64,000 nt of DNA, from the sequence record MZ234015.1. One strand, 5' to 3'. This document shows positions 12,671 to 57,805 of the stretch, piece by piece; positions within the stretch are counted from its first letter, which is position 1; the number at the start of each line of letters is the position of its first letter. The DNA comes from Escherichia phage vB_EcoP-101114BS3. Below the pieces are notes generated by a model. That model saw nothing but the letters and a program-made list of their open reading frames with translations. It did no database searches and was not told where the DNA came from. A program made the translations under genes and the position numbers.

Positions 12671-13411
12671 TTAGAAAGGGCTGTCATCTTCTTCAAAGGT
12701 AGACTGCGGCTCTTCGTTAATAGTAGGGATACTTGGAGTAGCATCTTTCTGTTCAGTATCAGAAGCTTTAGTAACTTCACGACCAGCCAGAGGGATGTTC
12801 TTAGCATCATTAGCTTGGGTCAGAAGATTACGTTGGAATGGGAAGATTGCTTGATAAGCAGCCAAGTTAGCATCAGTCTCAGCATACGGTTCGAAGAAGA
12901 TCAACTCACTACGAGGGGCACCTACAGCATCACGATATTTGGTAGGGATTGGAGTGATACTCTTAATGGAGTTTTTCTTCTCACCAGCTTTGTTTACATA
13001 GGAATTAACCAGAATGTTAACAGGCTGACCTAGCAGCATATCTTTAAACCAACCCAAATCACCTTTCAGTGCTTGAACACTTGGGTCGATCATTTTAATC
13101 AGATTCAGAATACCAGAGTTCTTAGCTCGTGGGTTTACGTCGAAAGTTTTAAACTGGCAAGCAGGACGAGGGTCCAGAGGTTTGCCTTCATTATCAGTCC
13201 CTGTTGCATCTACGCCAATCAGCTCAAAAGCTAAGTCCATACGGAAAGCTGGGTTCTTAGGGGTAACTGCTTTGGTCTTAGGGTCAATCCAAGGGTCACG
13301 ATTGTGAACACCTAAACCTACAACACGAACAATACGTGCTTCGTACTCACCATCAGGGATTACATCGTAGTTGGATTTACGGGATACAGACAGTTCAGGG
13401 ATCATAGACAT
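12671..13411 (-). CDS. Single-stranded DNA-binding protein
   Basis: Acidic C-terminal tail ending EEDDSPF (SSB-type tail with terminal Phe); replication-module context. Confidence 0.65.
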   Translation of the reverse strand: MSMIPELSVSRKSNYDVIPDGEYEARIVRVVGLGVHNRDPWIDPKTKAVTPKNPAFRMDLAFELIGVDATGTDNEGKPLDPRPACQFKTFDVNPRAKNSGILNLIKMIDPSVQALKGDLGWFKDMLLGQPVNILVNSYVNKAGEKKNSIKSITPIPTKYRDAVGAPRSELIFFEPYAETDANLAAYQAIFPFQRNLLTQANDAKNIPLAGREVTKASDTEQKDATPSIPTINEEPQSTFEEDDSPF

Positions 13412-13468
13412 ATTAATATTTCCTTATATAAATTTAAGATTGTTGCTCTCTTTGAGCGGTTTGTATAC

Positions 13469-13480
13469 TATATACATTAC
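13469..13480 (-). promoter_or_regulatory. TAATGTATATA motif (minus-strand copy) upstream of the SSB gene
   Basis: Minus-sense GTAATGTATATAG about 60-70 nt upstream of the SSB start codon. Confidence 0.35.
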
Positions 13481-13540
13481 ACTTATACAGATAAGGTTCT
13501 ATTATACTATAACCTTTTTGGTAGTAGATAATGACAAGTA

Positions 13541-13552
13541 GTAATGTATATA
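13541..13552 (+). promoter_or_regulatory. TAATGTATATA motif (plus-strand copy) in the same intergenic region
   Basis: GTAATGTATATATGG on the plus strand pointing into a ~270-bp region with no ORF. Confidence 0.3.
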
Positions 13553-13825
13553 TGGTATAGCTAGTAAAGCTATTGCAGGCTTGTATATTGGGCAATCATT
13601 GTAACCCTTGCAAGTACCGAAGGGCAGGAGACACCTGCGAGATAAAATAGAGAATTAAGGAAATCCTTGATTTAGGTTGTAGGGACTCCTAGGGACTTTG
13701 ATTCTCTATTTAAAAGAATATTAATTACTTACTACCTAAATAATTAACTAACTTACTTAAACCAAACTCAAGAATAATAGATAAAAAGATTATTCCTAAG
13801 AAAGCTAAAAAGTAAAGGATATAAG

Positions 13826-52942: not shown

Positions 52943-53499
52943 TGGATAGCCTCACAATTAGCAAAGTTAATAAAGGTTGTATAAACTGCTACACCGTCAT
53001 GATATGCAGTCGTAGCGAGTATGGTTTCACTTACATCACCATAGCTAACGAGATTAGTTACAAACTGTAATTTCTCTTTCTCAACCTTCTGATACAGAGA
53101 ATACGTCACCATATCGTGATCACTATCAGCACGTTTCAATTTAATGACTGACTGAGTGCCGGATTTCTCGCCCAATGGGGTAAGAGTGACACGCACATTA
53201 GCGGTAGTGACTTCATTGAAGTGAACACGCCAGAATGCATCATTGCCATCACTTCCAACGTCACGGCAAGCCATATCAGGAGCGTTCTTAAATGTGCTAA
53301 CAAAAGATTGCAGACCAGTAGGAGCGGATAACCTCTTATCATCTTTAGCCTGCACATTGGTAGCGATAGCACTAACACCGATAGCTGCAACCAGTGCATA
53401 AGACGCTAGATTGATAGCCTGCATTGCTTTGATAGCCATTATTACTACTCCTGATAGATGAAAGATTGTTTGTCGTGTGTAGTTACTTAGGCTGATCAA
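52939..53499 (-). CDS. Secreted protein (signal peptide)
   Basis: Hydrophobic signal-like segment LASYALVAAIGVSAIATNVQA after an N-terminal extension; start uncertain. Confidence 0.5.
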   Translation of the reverse strand: MISLSNYTRQTIFHLSGVVIMAIKAMQAINLASYALVAAIGVSAIATNVQAKDDKRLSAPTGLQSFVSTFKNAPDMACRDVGSDGNDAFWRVHFNEVTTANVRVTLTPLGEKSGTQSVIKLKRADSDHDMVTYSLYQKVEKEKLQFVTNLVSYGDVSETILATTAYHDGVAVYTTFINFANCEAIQ

Positions 53500-53720
53500 C
53501 CTTCACTACTCACTATCACCGCTAACTACTTTACATCACTGCTTCATTAACGATAATTCAAACTACGATTGCAACTATATATTAAAGGAAAAACATGTCA
53601 ACCACTTATTTTCAAACTCTTTCATAACTCACTGAATATAAAAGGAATTTAATTTACTAAACTTTCTTACTCAGAGATACAGCTTACCAAATAGATGTTA
53701 TTTTATAACACTTACAGAAC

Positions 53721-53815
53721 GGGTAGCAGACCAACGGGATAGATAGATGGGTAAGACGTGCCGCATAGGTTAGCCAATGGGTAAGAAGCCTAACGAGGAA
53801 GGGGAAACGGGTAGG
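53721..53815 (+). repeat. ATGGGT(A/G)-type direct-repeat cluster I
   Basis: ACGGGTAGC, ATGGGTAAG (twice), ACGGGTAGG within 95 bp, all on the plus strand. Confidence 0.5.
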
Positions 53816-53884
53816 ATATAATGTAAGTTAGTTACAGGTAACAGGTCAGACCATGCGGTAATAAATTACCAGTCAAATTCCTAC

Positions 53885-53960
53885 TCATCAAAAGAAAAAA
53901 GAAACGCTGAAAAAAGAAAAGAATAAAAGAAAGAATAAAAATAATAACTAAAGTAAACAA
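53885..53960 (+). other. A-rich polypurine tract (AAAAGA-type reiterations)
   Basis: ~70 bp almost purely A/G on the plus strand between repeat clusters I and II. Confidence 0.5.
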
Positions 53961-54180
53961 CTACCAGTCTAATGATACATACATCAATAATCCACTCATG
54001 AAACATTAACATAGGTTATTACTATTAAACTTGGGGTAGTGTGAGGATTGTTATAATTGCATGGTGTTACCATTACTAACCTCACTATGATAGCCCTTAC
54101 TATTAGCCCTCTTATTATCACCCCTTAACAGTACATCAGAGTCTAGCCTTTCATCCTTCCTTAACATGAGTAGAAGAAAT

Positions 54181-54265
54181 ACGGGTGGGATATTACTGGT
54201 TAGATATACATGGGTAAATAATGCATGTGTAATATCAATGGGTAGGGTATTTATGGGTAGGGATA
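54181..54265 (+). repeat. ATGGGT(A/G)-type direct-repeat cluster II
   Basis: ACGGGTGGGATA, CATGGGTAAATA, AATGGGTAGGGTAT, TATGGGTAGGGATA in 85 bp. Confidence 0.55.
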
Positions 54266-54453
54266 CCACTGGTAGCAGGTAGGGCAAGGCTTAGAGCTTA
54301 AAGGCTGATTGATTTCCTAAAGGCAATTGCATTGGTAATAACCCTTTTTTAAATGAGGACTCCCCCTTTTTAGGAAACGCGCTCGGAGAGGCTAGGTCCA
54401 TCCGGTCAAATTGAAATTTTAAACTGTTATATATAAGCATAAGGAATAACTTA

Positions 54454-54618
54454 ATGTGGAAATTGAAGATGATTATTCGTCAGATCAAATGTCAACATGA
54501 ATACTACCCGATACGAATATCAAGAGGTGATGAACGATTACACGCTTATTACAAGAGTACATGGAGATGTGCAGACTGTGGTAAGGTGAGGAATAGTAAA
54601 TGGGTGGATAGGCCTTAA
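54454..54618 (+). CDS. Unlisted small zinc-ribbon protein (54 aa)
   Basis: ATG at 54454 preceded by AAGGAA; translation MWKLKMIIRQIKCQHEYYPIRISRGDERLHAYYKSTWRCADCGKVRNSKWVDRP with C..H ... C..C pairs. Confidence 0.4.
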   Translation: MWKLKMIIRQIKCQHEYYPIRISRGDERLHAYYKSTWRCADCGKVRNSKWVDRP

Positions 54619-54740
54619 CATGACATGGCCTTTATGGGTATGCCTTAATGTGGGGTAGCCTTTATGAAGTCCCCTTTACTTCAGCGTACATGGGTTTATA
54701 CATGGGTGGGCCTTTAGATGAGTACGCCTTTATGGGTTGA
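54598..54740 (+). repeat. ATGGGT(A/G/T)-type direct-repeat cluster III with GCCTTTA/GCCTTAA words
   Basis: AAATGGGTGGATAGGCC, TATGGGTATGCC, AATGTGGGGTAGCC, CATGGGTTTATA, CATGGGTGGGCC, TATGGGTTGA in ~140 bp directly upstream of the first gene of the head module. Confidence 0.55.
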
Positions 54741-54769
54741 TCACTCTCGTTTATCAGAGGAGAACAAAT

Positions 54770-55018
54770 ATGTTTCTAGACTTTTTATCAGAGGTACTTC
54801 CCTACTTCCGCACTGAGAAATGTGCATTTGTATTTGATGAAGGGGAGGAGTCAATGACTTGTTTGGGTAGATTAGTAGACCTAGACGATGATGAAGATTT
54901 TGATGCTACGATGGACATTAGTTCATTGGGCTGGTTGTACATGAGATGCTTTGTAAGTTACAAGGCTGAAACGTTTAAAGATTATCGCTATAGCGCTGAA
55001 GGAGAGAATGATGAATAA
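54770..55018 (+). CDS. Hypothetical protein (first gene of head-module operon)
   Basis: ATG at 54770 preceded by GAGGAG; the ORF track extends to a TTG at 54737. Confidence 0.5.
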   Translation: MFLDFLSEVLPYFRTEKCAFVFDEGEESMTCLGRLVDLDDDEDFDATMDISSLGWLYMRCFVSYKAETFKDYRYSAEGENDE

Positions 55019-55664
55019 TATGACAGGAACTAATACACTGAATGCAATCTATGAGAACATGGGATGTAAAGGCGAGGTTGCTTACAATGGCTCACTCCGT
55101 CCTTTATCAGAGGACACTTTCTATCTGAATCGTGTTCATGAAACTACTGGAGGTAAATCCCGAGTTGAGATGGTAAAACAACTGGCTCATGGTTCTGTGT
55201 ACGGTTATGCTCCTTCAACCCGTGAAATATGGGAAGGTTTGATTCCTCGTACAGAAGCTAAAGATGTGAAAGACTATTTCACTGTAGCAAAAGAAGTTAA
55301 ACGTAAGTGTCCATCCAATTTAGAAGTTGTTCCGTATGTAGCTGACAAACATGCACACCTACCGGACTATGCCCGTGAGATGATTGAGATGATTGAAGAA
55401 GCCGAGTATGAAGCTCTGAATAATTATTTAAATTCAAAAGATCAATGGTCACGTAATGTAGTAATTGATGAAGAAGGTAATGAAGTTGTAACGTGGGTGC
55501 ATGTTAGTGAACAAGCTCTGGACCCCGAGCTTGAAGAATACAAAAAATTTTTGGCGTCCTCTTCTTTTGAGGTAGAGAATGACAAATCTATTCCAGTTGG
55601 CTGGGAAGGTGAAACTGTAGCTCTCCAGACTTTGTTCAACCTACACGTAGGTGATGTAGATTAA
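55008..55664 (+). CDS. Hypothetical protein
   Basis: 218-aa ORF overlapping the previous stop (ATGA-type coupling). Confidence 0.6.
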   Translation: MMNNMTGTNTLNAIYENMGCKGEVAYNGSLRPLSEDTFYLNRVHETTGGKSRVEMVKQLAHGSVYGYAPSTREIWEGLIPRTEAKDVKDYFTVAKEVKRKCPSNLEVVPYVADKHAHLPDYAREMIEMIEEAEYEALNNYLNSKDQWSRNVVIDEEGNEVVTWVHVSEQALDPELEEYKKFLASSSFEVENDKSIPVGWEGETVALQTLFNLHVGDVD

Positions 55665-55700: not shown

Positions 55701-55729
55701 TTATAATGATAATGTAGAAGGAGTATAAG

Positions 55730-56197
55730 ATGTTTGGAGAAAAAGGAGAACTCACGCCTGCACAGGTAGCTGAGATTACAGGAAGACTGCCCGGAGTAAC
55801 GGAAGAACTTGAATCCAAGGGCATGGAACCAAGCACAGGGAAGTTCACTAAAGGTAATAAATTTGGACGTCCCAAAGGTAGTAGAGGTAAATTGACACAG
55901 CTCATGCTCGATCGTGTTGCTGCTAGTCATCTGTCTCCCGATGAAGTGTTGATTCAGATTTATGAAGATCCAAATATTCCACCCGATCTTAGATTCAAGG
56001 CTGCAAGTAAAGTCGCTGATCTGGTATATCCTAAGGCAGCTTCTGTTGAGGTTAAGATTGAGGAAGAGAATGTAATCAATGAAGAATCACTGAACGCACA
56101 GATTCGAGACTTCTTGACTGGTGCACTGAAAGTGGATGTGCTACCTCCAGAGGACTCTGAGGACGCTGAAAAGGAGGAGGAAGCGGACGAGAGTTAA
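55730..56197 (+). CDS. Putative terminase small subunit (positional)
   Basis: 155-aa protein with basic N-terminal half and acidic tail, immediately upstream of the large terminase gene; no motif confirmation. Confidence 0.4.
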   Translation: MFGEKGELTPAQVAEITGRLPGVTEELESKGMEPSTGKFTKGNKFGRPKGSRGKLTQLMLDRVAASHLSPDEVLIQIYEDPNIPPDLRFKAASKVADLVYPKAASVEVKIEEENVINEESLNAQIRDFLTGALKVDVLPPEDSEDAEKEEEADES

Positions 56198-56263
56198 TAG
56201 GAATAGAGGGGAGGGTTCTTTTCGCGAGGGATCTCTCCCTTTTTTATTTTATTGGAGGAATAT

Positions 56264-57805
56264 ATGTCGTTAGATAAAGAAATCTATGAAGCTCTAACTG
56301 GAGACAAGTTGAGTATAGAGGAAAAGAAAGCTTTGCTCAATATGTTAAAAGAAAGGGACCAGTGGAGAAAATATAACAAGATGTTGGCTTTTAAAGCTTA
56401 CGACTTTCAGAAGAAATTCTATGCAGCAGGGTTGAAGCATCGCTTTCGATTCCTGTGCGCAGCTAACCGTGTTGGTAAATCTTACAGCGAGGCATACGAG
56501 TTTGCTTGTCATGTCACAGGTCGCTATCCAACTTGGTGGACAGGTTACAGATTTAATCGACCTATATTGGCTTGGGCAGTAGGGATTACAGGGGACTCTA
56601 CAAGAAAGGTATTGCAAAAGGAGTTGTTTGGAACACCTATCGGAAAGGATATGAATCTAATAGGAACAGGTGTTATTCCTCGTGATGCTATCGTATTGGA
56701 CACGATAGAACGAGATGGGAACAAATTACAGATTGTACAAATTAAGCATCAAAACGCGAGAGGCGAGTTTGACGGTTTAAGTACATTAGAGTTCCGTTCT
56801 ACCCAACAGGGTGAACATACATTGATGGGTGCTACAGTTGATTATATTTGGCTGGACGAAGAAGATCCATATGAATCTATGGCAATCTTCTCTCAGTGCG
56901 TAACACGTACACTTACAACTAAAGGTTTAGTTACTATTACAGCTACACCAGAGAACGGTTTAACAGAGCTGGTGGATAAGTTTATGAAAGGTGAAGGAGA
57001 TGAGAACACAGGTTCTCTGTATTTCCAGAATGCTTCTTGGTGGGATGCTCATGTAGATTTAGGTGGACATATCACTGACCAAGATATTAAAGACATGACT
57101 GAAGGTATTCCAACATGGCAGTTAGAGATGCGTTCAAAAGGTATGCCGTTGCTTGGTTCTGGTTTGATTTATGATGTATCAGATGACATGATTAAGTGTG
57201 ATCCCTTTGAGATACCTGATACGTGGAAACGTGTTTGTGCTATTGATATTGGTATCGATCACCCGACAGCCGCTGTTTGGACAGCATATGATGCTAACAC
57301 TGATACGATTTATGTTTATGACTGCTATAAAGAAGGTGGGTTTACTCCGGTGTACCATGCACCAGCTATTAATGGTCGTGGTCAGTGGATTCCAGTTATT
57401 CTTCCTCACGATGCCGATAATATTGAGAAGGGAAGTGGTTCGTCTGTTGCTCAATTCTATAAGAATGCAGGGGTTAATGTACAGAGTGAGACCTTCTACA
57501 ACAAGATTGGAATGGATGGTAAGAAGAACTTCTTTGTAGAGCCGGGAATTACTGATATTCGTGAACGTATGATGTCAGGTCGTTTTAAAATCTTTAACAT
57601 TGCTTCGTGTGCTAAACTCTTTGAAGAGAAAGCTCGCTATCACCGTAAGGTTGGCAAGATTGTTAAGGAACATGATGACTTGATGGATGCTATGCGATAT
57701 TCAGCTTGTTCTGTAACACATCGTGGACGTAGTAAGCATGATGCTAGTTATGGTAGTTCATCGCTTTATCAAGACAATATTAACAGATGGAATCAGACCT
57801 ACTAA
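56264..57805 (+). CDS. Terminase large subunit
   Basis: ATG at 56264 with GGAGG SD; Walker A-like LCAANRVGKSY in the N-terminal ATPase region; gene order terminase-portal-scaffold-capsid. Confidence 0.7.
   Translation: MSLDKEIYEALTGDKLSIEEKKALLNMLKERDQWRKYNKMLAFKAYDFQKKFYAAGLKHRFRFLCAANRVGKSYSEAYEFACHVTGRYPTWWTGYRFNRPILAWAVGITGDSTRKVLQKELFGTPIGKDMNLIGTGVIPRDAIVLDTIERDGNKLQIVQIKHQNARGEFDGLSTLEFRSTQQGEHTLMGATVDYIWLDEEDPYESMAIFSQCVTRTLTTKGLVTITATPENGLTELVDKFMKGEGDENTGSLYFQNASWWDAHVDLGGHITDQDIKDMTEGIPTWQLEMRSKGMPLLGSGLIYDVSDDMIKCDPFEIPDTWKRVCAIDIGIDHPTAAVWTAYDANTDTIYVYDCYKEGGFTPVYHAPAINGRGQWIPVILPHDADNIEKGSGSSVAQFYKNAGVNVQSETFYNKIGMDGKKNFFVEPGITDIRERMMSGRFKIFNIASCAKLFEEKARYHRKVGKIVKEHDDLMDAMRYSACSVTHRGRSKHDASYGSSSLYQDNINRWNQTY

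Follow-up and report, generated by a model that had tools for sequence, protein, structure and literature searches.

Podophages such as T7 end in a short exact direct terminal repeat (DTR), and nicking of opposite strands followed by fill-in synthesis is the standard model for T7-type ends. How the junction between genomes is recognized and how the repeat is duplicated are poorly understood in phages with short exact DTRs, even in T7. Elsewhere it is established that terminases bind repeats beside the cut site, as at lambda cosB and the SPP1 pac site. The present analysis deals with positions 53,721-54,740 of a 64,000-nucleotide sequence of Escherichia phage vB_EcoP-101114BS3 (record MZ234015.1; the whole 64,000-nucleotide stretch is referred to as the window), in which ATGGGT-type words recur as direct repeats in three clusters. 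An earlier interpretation made from the letters alone (the sequence-only reading) compared these words with iterons of a replication origin and named a packaging or terminal region and a binding array for a phage sigma factor as alternatives. Judged by homology to relatives with mapped ends, the stretch is near certainly the terminal region, i.e., the concatemer junction, of a phiEco32-like podophage, and the most probable role of the words is to mark the genome ends, not to act as a classic replication origin.

For the phiEco32-like phages the repeat itself has been described. Both phiEco32 and SU10 possess a DTR of 193 bp with experimentally determined ends, in phiEco32 by restriction mapping, primer walking and subcloning and in SU10 by the drop-off of reads, and for YF01 full-length nanopore reads confirmed the repeat ends (PMC9965538, PMC4281155). 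The SU10 paper invokes the T7-type nick and fill-in model (PMC4281155), and background on terminase recognition sites is available (PMC7672466). The inverted CT^AGCC borders (the caret marks the cut), the AYGGGK arrays and the extension of the arrays beyond the repeat, all reported below, are undescribed in PMC4281155 and PMC9965538; the original phiEco32 papers (Savalia 2008, Pavlova 2012) lie outside this comparison. A literature search on T7 repeat arrays and on Kuravirus iterons or pac sites returned nothing useful.

The terminal repeat and its borders

The region 53400-55100 matched 82 phage records, all of them phiEco32-like coliphages (Gordonclarkvirinae). Identity is 100% with the phiEco32-like Suseptimavirus vB_EcoP-101114UKE3, an Escherichia phage (record MZ234017). 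Position 1 of the UKE3 record corresponds to window 54146, its final 2748 bases stop at window 54200, and 55 bp (window 54146-54200) are duplicated at both of its ends. From this match the window is seen as a permuted or concatemer-like copy of a UKE3-type genome, which holds the junction once. The records of SU7, UKE3 and NC-B all begin at window 54145/54146. Terminal repeats recovered from the records of phiEco32 (193 bp), SU10 (193 bp), NC-B (250 bp, annotated) and 4E8 (206 bp) all align to 54145-54393; they start with AGCCTTTC (GGCCTCTC in 4E8) and finish with GGCT (ACCT in 4E8). With respect to location the packaging or terminal region, named as an alternative in the sequence-only reading, was therefore the right choice. 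Cluster II is located inside the DTR, starting 36 bp right of its left border. Cluster I lies 330-430 bp left of the DTR, which is by homology the right end of the virion DNA, and cluster III lies 205-345 bp right of it, by homology the left genome end.

The deposited repeats disagree in length, with 55 bp for UKE3 (MZ234017), 53 bp for SU7 (MZ342906), 250 bp for NC-B and a 275-bp repeat_region for PAS59 (OQ921332); the latter is shifted left of the phiEco32-type borders (~window 53925-54222), and its paper states no method. Homology to phiEco32 and SU10 supports a length of ~249 bp for the window, and the repeats of 53-55 bp in the SU7 and UKE3 records are probably too short. The assignment as terminal region is independent of the repeat length, because the left border is identical in every source.

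The two borders of the repeat (Table 1) constitute an inverted repeat pair that was found by a repeat finder to be 90% complementary. Both borders were tabulated in ten genomes, i.e., the window and nine relatives. On the strand entering the repeat, ct^AGCC(N)(Y)TC is present at both borders in eight of the nine phage genomes, namely in the window, Bas86, MLP3, Bas87, TH42, NC-B, SU10 and phiEco32. There are two exceptions: the borders of 4E8 are ct^GGCC and ct^AGGT, and L021, a metagenomic relative, has ct^AGCG at the right border only. In the alignment of close relatives the left border is invariant and the 70 bp directly left of it are hypervariable. Identical borders in inverted orientation suggest symmetric nicking by a single enzyme, and since such a pair matches the prediction of staggered nicking by one enzyme, it was counted in favor of a terminase cut at these positions.

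Near its right end the DTR contains a conserved box. For SU10, a CCCTTTTTTA-N10-CCCTTTTTTA pair was reported, with a T-run whose length varies between reads (PMC4281155), and a stretch at ~130-170 of the repeat was found to be conserved in 30 phages (PMC9965538). The box is present as GAGGACTCCCCCTTTT in the metagenomic relatives L021 and L022 and as a shorter CCCC(C)TTT(T) core in the metagenomic relative L023 (CCCCCTTT), in Cronobacter phage GAP52 and in Salmonella phage 7-11.

Enrichment, spacing and conservation of the words

The hexamer ATGGGT was observed ten times in 53700-54760 compared to 0.30 expected, with all copies on the plus strand (Poisson p ~1e-12), and it was top-ranked in an unbiased k-mer test, in which ATGGGTA was the top-ranked 7-mer (6 observed vs. 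0.07 expected). The more general form A[CT]GGG[TG] has 13 copies in 53719-54737, all on the plus strand and distributed as 4 + 4 + 5 over clusters I, II and III, and GGGT[AG] was counted 14 times in the junction. Outside the junction, 67 copies of A[CT]GGG[TG] (30 plus, 37 minus) are dispersed through the window, and no second cluster was found there, as every other 300-bp segment of the 64 kb has at most two copies on either strand. The sequence-only reading had placed its direct repeats in three clusters on one strand, and they are indeed found at the coordinates given: its degenerate word occurs 14 times on the plus strand of the window, ten of these in 53747-54732, and not at all on the minus strand of the region. 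The genome-wide count which it proposed as a check revealed no comparable cluster elsewhere in the 64 kb. In total, the plus strand of the junction carries 13 strict and ~8 degenerate words, the minus strand no strict word. Chance or low complexity as the origin of the words was ruled out by the k-mer statistics together with the recurrence of the arrays in phiEco32.

A position weight matrix shows information content at ~9 positions, (A/T)A-A(T/C)GGGT(A/G)(G/A). Strong words are spaced, cluster by cluster, by 28, 30, 30 bp, by 15, 29, 28, 15 bp and by 34, 56, 12, 16, 14 bp. This corresponds to a lattice of ~14.5-15 bp, which is partly filled by degenerate copies (53735, 54196, 54225, 54268 and 54718 among them). 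In cluster III, AYGGGT words and GCCTTWA words together form composite units of ~14-17 bp; the interleaved GCCTT[AT]A word, already noticed from the letters alone, has six copies in 54612-54732 (54612, 54628, 54642, 54658, 54710 and 54726).

Selection on the words is apparent from an alignment of the junction in six close relatives, in which 70 of 78 columns of the word cores are invariant, compared to 652 of 930 in the rest of the non-coding sequence (Fisher p = 1e-4). The words of cluster I are invariant in all six, and in cluster II the strict cores are invariant while the spacers vary. The arrays vary by whole units, and several unit-sized gaps are found in cluster III. Escherichia virus TH42 has a 31-bp insertion (two word units) in cluster II at window 54208, resulting in a repeat of ~280 bp; this insertion is a natural copy-number variation of the array.

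Between genera the word itself drifts, with the variants ATGGGT, ACGGGG, ATAGGGT and ATGATAG. In phiEco32, SU10 and 4E8, ACGGGG/ACGGGT words replace the words of clusters I and II at the same places. ACGGGGA is the most enriched 7-mer of the phiEco32 junction, and in the complete phiEco32 genome nine of the ten plus-strand ACGGGG copies fall into the terminal zones, where the minus strand has none; as in the window, the phiEco32 arrays are located inside the repeat and on both sides of it. The layout is kept in metagenomic relatives in which the homologue of the candidate small terminase subunit (TerS) is 77%, 62% and 47% identical. Its elements there are a GCCTTTC start (L021, L022), words with a GGGT core (ACGGGT, ATAGGGT, GGGGTA) and a CCCCCTTTT-type box. 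The CT^AG repeat end is present as GGCTAGCC in L021 and L023 and was not found in L022, and an A-rich tract with CTGAAAA was seen in L021 and L023. Composite arrays analogous to cluster III are positioned just upstream of the first plus-strand gene in phiEco32, SU10, L023, GAP52, 7-11 and Vibrio phage Vp_R1.

Two relatives show further peculiarities of the arrays. Vp_R1 (~1590-1660 of locus L020) carries ATGATA(G/A) seven times in tandem, at a period of 11-12 bp, right after a CCCCCTTTTT box and has five further dispersed copies on the same strand; the looser AATGATA is found ten times on that strand and once on the other. The junction of Escherichia phage 4E8 (L002/L011) is a mosaic, in which the phiEco32-like part comprises clusters I and II, with ACGGGG words, and the small Cys-rich gene, with RKAYGDER, and cluster III and the TerS candidate are near-identical to those of the window. 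The recombination break must thus fall between the repeat and cluster III.

Table 1. Features of the junction and of its surroundings, in window coordinates.
Feature	Position	Strand	Remarks
Sigma-70-type early promoter (predicted)	53574-53601	minus	TTGACA-16-TATAGT, 11/12 consensus matches; conserved in all relatives aligned
Cluster I	53719-53815	plus	strict ACGGGTA 53719, ATGGGTA 53747, ATGGGTA 53777, ACGGGTA 53807; degenerate e.g. ACGGGAT 53735
Promoter-like element	53816-53825	plus	TATAATGTAA / TATAATGTA; directly after last cluster I word; reads rightward across A-rich tract toward DTR
A-rich polypurine tract	53885-53960	plus	80% A+T, 80% purine; conserved core ACGCTGAAAAAGAAA
Left DTR border	54143-54152	plus	CT^AGCCTTTC, cut 54144/54145; site sequence CTAGCCTTTC; putative terminase nick site
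Direct terminal repeat (DTR)	54145-54393		~249 bp, single copy here; homology to phiEco32, SU10 and NC-B repeats
Cluster II	54181-54283	plus	strict 54181, 54210, 54238, 54253; degenerate 54196, 54225, 54268, 54276
Two TAAAGGC words	54299-54305, 54318-54324	minus	reverse complement of cluster III GCCTTTA; inside DTR; invariant in close relatives
Conserved box	54342-54372	plus	CCCTTTTTTAAATGAGGACTCCCCCTTTTTA; near right end of DTR
Right DTR border	54386-54395	minus	GAGAGGCT^AG; minus strand CT^AGCCTCTC; site sequence GAGAGGCTAG
Gene of 54-aa Cys-rich protein	54454-54618	plus	conserved; phrog_7696, E=1e-11; first gene at left genome end
Cluster III	54598-54740	plus	AYGGGT at 54600, 54634, 54690, 54702, 54732, interleaved with GCCTTWA
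Candidate TerS, 155 aa	55730-56197	plus	directly upstream of large terminase; gene order, weak profile matches
Large terminase (TerL)	56252-57805	plus	phrog_2; 99.8% identity to NC-B TerL, 38% to PaP3/LUZ24-group terminases

A proposed maturation site and rival explanations

The words lie in and around the DTR, they are enriched, confined to one strand, regularly spaced and under selection, their layout is kept in divergent relatives and T7 offers a parallel. For these reasons they are read here as a binding lattice that would mark the concatemer junction for genome maturation and packaging, a proposal in which we place even confidence. A multimeric phage DNA-binding protein, most likely the TerS candidate encoded 1 kb downstream, would bind the word lattice, mark the junction in replicated concatemers and position TerL. 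The latter would nick CT^AGCC on opposite strands at the two borders, and filling in of the resulting repeat-length 5' overhangs would, as the T7 model has it, provide both daughter ends with the repeat. Packaging would take its direction from the single orientation of the words.

The gene order right of the junction is 155-aa protein, large terminase and portal, and left of the junction lies a leftward early gene block. Homologues of TerL contain Terminase_6N/6C domains, and TerL is the enzyme expected to cut at the repeat borders. The 155-aa TerS candidate may be the protein that binds the words. It has an invariant basic N-terminal motif, GRPKGxR..TQ, which is kept in the divergent metagenomic relatives as well. 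A profile of 36 sequences gave three matches with E<10 against the PDB, and two of these are small terminases, 7joq (E=0.017) and that of PaP3, 6w7t (E=0.31); these weak matches cover the oligomerization core. A match to DUF5681 (E=0.09) is below the Pfam threshold. The homologue in YF01 was named small terminase from an HHpred match to PaP3 TerS (PMC9965538). As a single sequence the candidate had no match in the PDB, its AlphaFold model is poor (pLDDT 65) and found no match with Foldseek, and no similarity to T7 gp18 was detected.

Several points weigh against a packaging lattice bound by this protein. For SU7, PhageTerm gave a repeat of only 53 bp, a figure that was doubted by its authors (PMC8399022), and the DTR coordinates for the present isolate rest on homology. 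The identification of the 55730-56197 product as TerS is weakly supported by the profile matches. The TerS candidate of 4E8 is 97.9% identical to that of the window, including the N-terminal motif, yet clusters I and II of 4E8 consist of ACGGGG-type words. Word variant and TerS candidate thus do not co-vary, and the proposal can accommodate this only with a protein that recognizes YGGG, the core common to both variants. The position of cluster I beside the conserved A-rich tract, together with DnaA boxes at this place in Cronobacter relatives, points to replication for cluster I. Furthermore, the function of the T7 terminal arrays has, to our knowledge, never been established. Co-variation of word and TerS candidate was dropped as a line of evidence, being uninformative because physical linkage explains the 4E8 mosaic.

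In a replication origin, the preferred explanation of the sequence-only reading, the words would be iterons and the A-rich tract an unwinding element; the iterons would be bound by a phage or host initiator. T7 origins consist of a promoter and an AT-rich segment, and at the T7 ends the origins phiOL and phiOR are interleaved with packaging signals; the arrays of the window may likewise serve both replication and packaging. As an explanation of the whole array a replication origin is unlikely, although it keeps some weight at one place. The A-rich tract, a candidate unwinding or bending element, is the most purine-skewed 76 bp of the window and has a low duplex stability (99.3rd percentile), with two or three other places less stable. 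Its core is conserved in phiEco32, 4E8, L021, L023, GAP52, A24, 7-11 and out to Vp_R1 (CTGAAAGAAATAATAAAAGAATAAAG in Vp_R1). Cluster I lies 70-170 bp upstream of this tract. In Cronobacter phages A24 (L018/L019) and GAP52 (L024/L025), four copies of TTATCCACA and one inverted copy, all perfect DnaA boxes, occur within ~200 bp at the position of cluster I, ~190-370 bp upstream of the A-rich tract in the long non-coding region that precedes the terminase genes. (An assembly overlap is suspected for the 127 bp shared by the two ends of the A24 record, which were therefore not counted as terminal repeat.) DnaA boxes were found neither in the junction region of the window nor in 7-11. The promoter-like TATAATGTA after cluster I points at the tract and resembles the promoter-plus-AT-rich origins of T7, and the cumulative GC skew has its minimum at the junction; the latter coincides with the switch of gene orientation and is therefore not independent evidence.

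Against an origin made of all three clusters, clusters II and III are away from the tract, with cluster II within the DTR and cluster III 640-780 bp distant; the tract does exist as an AT-rich element, but it separates clusters I and II only and not all three clusters as had been proposed. Both Vp_R1 and T7 have their largest array inside the left end. The words have 7-9 bp on a lattice of 14.5 bp compared to typical iterons of 17-22 bp in helical phase. A scan of the genes near the junction revealed no initiator-like family, and the annotation published for a relative lists no more than polymerase, primase/helicase and ligase, and no initiator (PMC9965538). What survives of the origin reading concerns cluster I and the A-rich tract, for which it keeps some life. 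The least stable and most A+T-rich segments of the window are 13400-13800 and ~47000-47120. The former contains two divergent full matches to the element of the phage sigma factor gp36 (13479, minus; 13542, plus), and by analogy to the T7 pattern of promoter plus AT-rich segment it is a possible real origin worth checking. A combination of both roles was considered as well: word lattice and inverted borders would form one maturation site, at which an oligomeric TerS or end-binding protein loads on AYGGGK and directs two symmetric nicks 249 bp apart, and the repeat would be duplicated by strand-displacement synthesis, primed by the same arrays together with the promoter-like element and the A-rich tract. 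In this way end formation and the start of replication would be coupled at one locus, and in the Cronobacter relatives host DnaA boxes would have taken the place of the phage-specific cluster I words. This combination appears rather improbable.

Transcriptional control by the words, through a regulator that silences or times early promoters at both ends or through the words being promoter elements of the phage sigma factor, is given little probability. The arrays flank the leftward early promoter (Table 1) and a putative rightward left-end promoter after the repeat. The former is predicted to fire into the early block, marking the right edge of the coding genome, and early promoters at the right genome end were described for phiEco32, SU10 and 7-11 (PMC4281155, PMC8948821). 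For the TGTGATGTTATA repeats which 7-11 has in place of cluster II, a function as promoters of the phage sigma factor was predicted (PMC4331800), and a late promoter lies in front of 7-11 gene 1 (PMC8948821). The sigma-factor array considered in the sequence-only reading nevertheless fails on the words themselves: AYGGGTR does not match the gp36 consensus tAATGTAtA, clear copies of which are located elsewhere in the window (4350, 13479, 13542, 20036 and 63122). Six gp36 promoters were mapped in phiEco32, upstream of genes 6, 13, 26, 40, 58 and 68, none of them terminal, and the experimental 7-11 late consensus, GTAAtg-16-aCTA, differs from the predicted repeats (PMC8948821). Furthermore, the phiEco32 regulator gp79 acts on RNA polymerase and not on DNA (PMC12276001). 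The promoter-like element directly after cluster I contains TAATGTAag at 53819, which either matches tAATGTAtA in part or represents a bare -10 box. The ATAATGTA form is also present at 55709-55716 before the TerS-candidate gene, where it is homologous to the mapped promoter of phiEco32 gene 6; after cluster I it is found in 4E8 and L021 (TATAATGTAT) and is absent from phiEco32 and SU10. If the element at 53816-53825 is a promoter, late transcripts started there would run over the A-rich tract and on into the repeat. At 54049-54057, between the A-rich tract and the DTR, an extended -10-like element, TGTTATAAT, points into the DTR; TATAAT or TATAGT is kept at this position in close relatives, a good -35 is absent and the promoter scan did not flag it.

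It is highly doubtful that the words have no protein-binding role at all and are debris of slippage and duplication or a structural feature of the end, e.g., curvature aiding ejection or condensation. Gain and loss of whole units and the drift of the word between genera would be compatible with such an origin. The word cores, however, are conserved above the spacers, and orientation on a single strand, lattice and three-cluster layout persist in very divergent genomes and in T7, which is unexpected for neutral debris.

Concerning the coding content, the sequence-only reading had found no open reading frame of 60 aa or more on the plus strand of the stretch. This does not make the stretch wholly non-coding, as it contains the conserved gene of the 54-aa Cys-rich protein between clusters II and III, and the last codons of this gene overlap the first word of cluster III. 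The protein shows a C-x-H ... C-x-x-C pattern, possibly a zinc ribbon, and matched no Pfam family above threshold. In phiEco32-type phages the AYGDE codons of the small Cys-rich protein include the ACGGGG word. A protein of 218 aa (55008-55664) is called 'ABC transporter' in PHROGs-derived annotations, yet it has zero Pfam matches, and the name looks like an annotation artefact. A Pfam scan of seven neighboring proteins gave no match above threshold, no known RNA families were found in 53300-55000, and no tRNA was found.

The phiEco32-like family offers a testable site for junction recognition, with two identical inverted borders, a regular lattice of short words, natural word variants and natural recombinants, of which 4E8 is an example. 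For records of Suseptimavirus and Kuravirus, the sequence (AGCCTTTC ... GGCT) allows the true genome ends to be set, and the arrays should be kept when these therapeutic coliphages are engineered or rebooted.

Comparison with known systems

The repeats of the Kuraviruses phiEco32, SU10 and YF01 and that of the window are the same repeat, for which the CCCTTTTTTA-N10-CCCTTTTTTA pair and the conserved stretch at 130-170 have been described (PMC4281155, PMC9965538). Salmonella phage 7-11 (L026/L027) has TGTGATGTTATA four times, and these repeats were predicted in 2015 as phage-sigma promoters (PMC4331800). They resemble cluster II in their position between the A-rich tract and the CCCCCTTTT box, in number and in strand bias, and they differ from it in the word. 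The later experimental consensus (PMC8948821) did not bear out the promoter interpretation, and the 7-11 repeats are better seen as a counterpart of cluster II. The TCAGTGTAA words before 7-11 gene 1 overlap the element GTAATG of the mapped P1 promoter.

Iteron origins (lambda O repeats, plasmid Rep) and DnaA-box origins share with the window direct repeats beside an AT-rich segment, which applies to cluster I only, and the Crifsvirus relatives have true DnaA boxes at the position of cluster I. Iteron origins differ from the window in word length, phasing and the presence of an initiator gene, and two of the three arrays of the window are away from the AT-rich tract. Localized single-strand nick sites (tf, T5 and phiKMV types) were rejected as an explanation, as the words keep to the terminal 1 kb instead of being dispersed along the genome, and as they do not match the tf motif TACT/RTGMC (PMC3517423).

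The terminase-binding sites of lambda cosB (R3, R2 and R1 for gpNu1, beside cosN) and of SPP1 pacL/pacR are, like the words of the window, short repeats ~35-170 bp from the cut on the packaged side, and in all of them the terminase genes are the next functional genes downstream. Lambda, in contrast, has 12-nt cohesive ends, three 16-bp sites, one of them inverted, and an IHF site. The window has at least seven words of 7-9 bp in a single orientation, distant arrays on both sides and a 249-bp repeat that needs duplication.

The closest architecture is that of T7. According to the background literature, T7 packaging requires the concatemer junction (Chung and Hinkle, cited in PMC13236587), and the specificity of packaging was assigned to gp19 and the genome ends (PMC3276506). 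With the right and left ends of T7 joined at the 160-bp repeat, one strand has 13 copies of CTAAAG and the other has none. Two of the CTAAAG/CCTAAAG copies precede the repeat, three are located in the left part of the repeat and eight follow it (~12 with one mismatch allowed), with 13-bp spacing, and the phiOR and phiOL promoters flank the word zone. These junction arrays were reportedly named SRR and SRL by Dunn and Studier. T7 and the window thus have in common that a podophage with a short exact DTR carries a word of 6-7 bp on one strand in three groups with 13-15 bp spacing, with promoters and AT-rich segments close by. They differ in the word (CCTAAAG vs. AYGGGTR), and they belong to different phage families with different polymerase systems and terminase lineages. 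The T7 borders are not an inverted CT^AGCC pair, and in the window cluster I is ~330 bp from the repeat with the A-rich tract in between. The resemblance is limited to the architecture: common descent with T7 is supported neither by the unrelated word nor by the TerS candidate, for which no similarity to T7 gp18 was detected. The junction arrays of the window belong to the terminal word arrays of the T7 type; they do not constitute a new kind of element.

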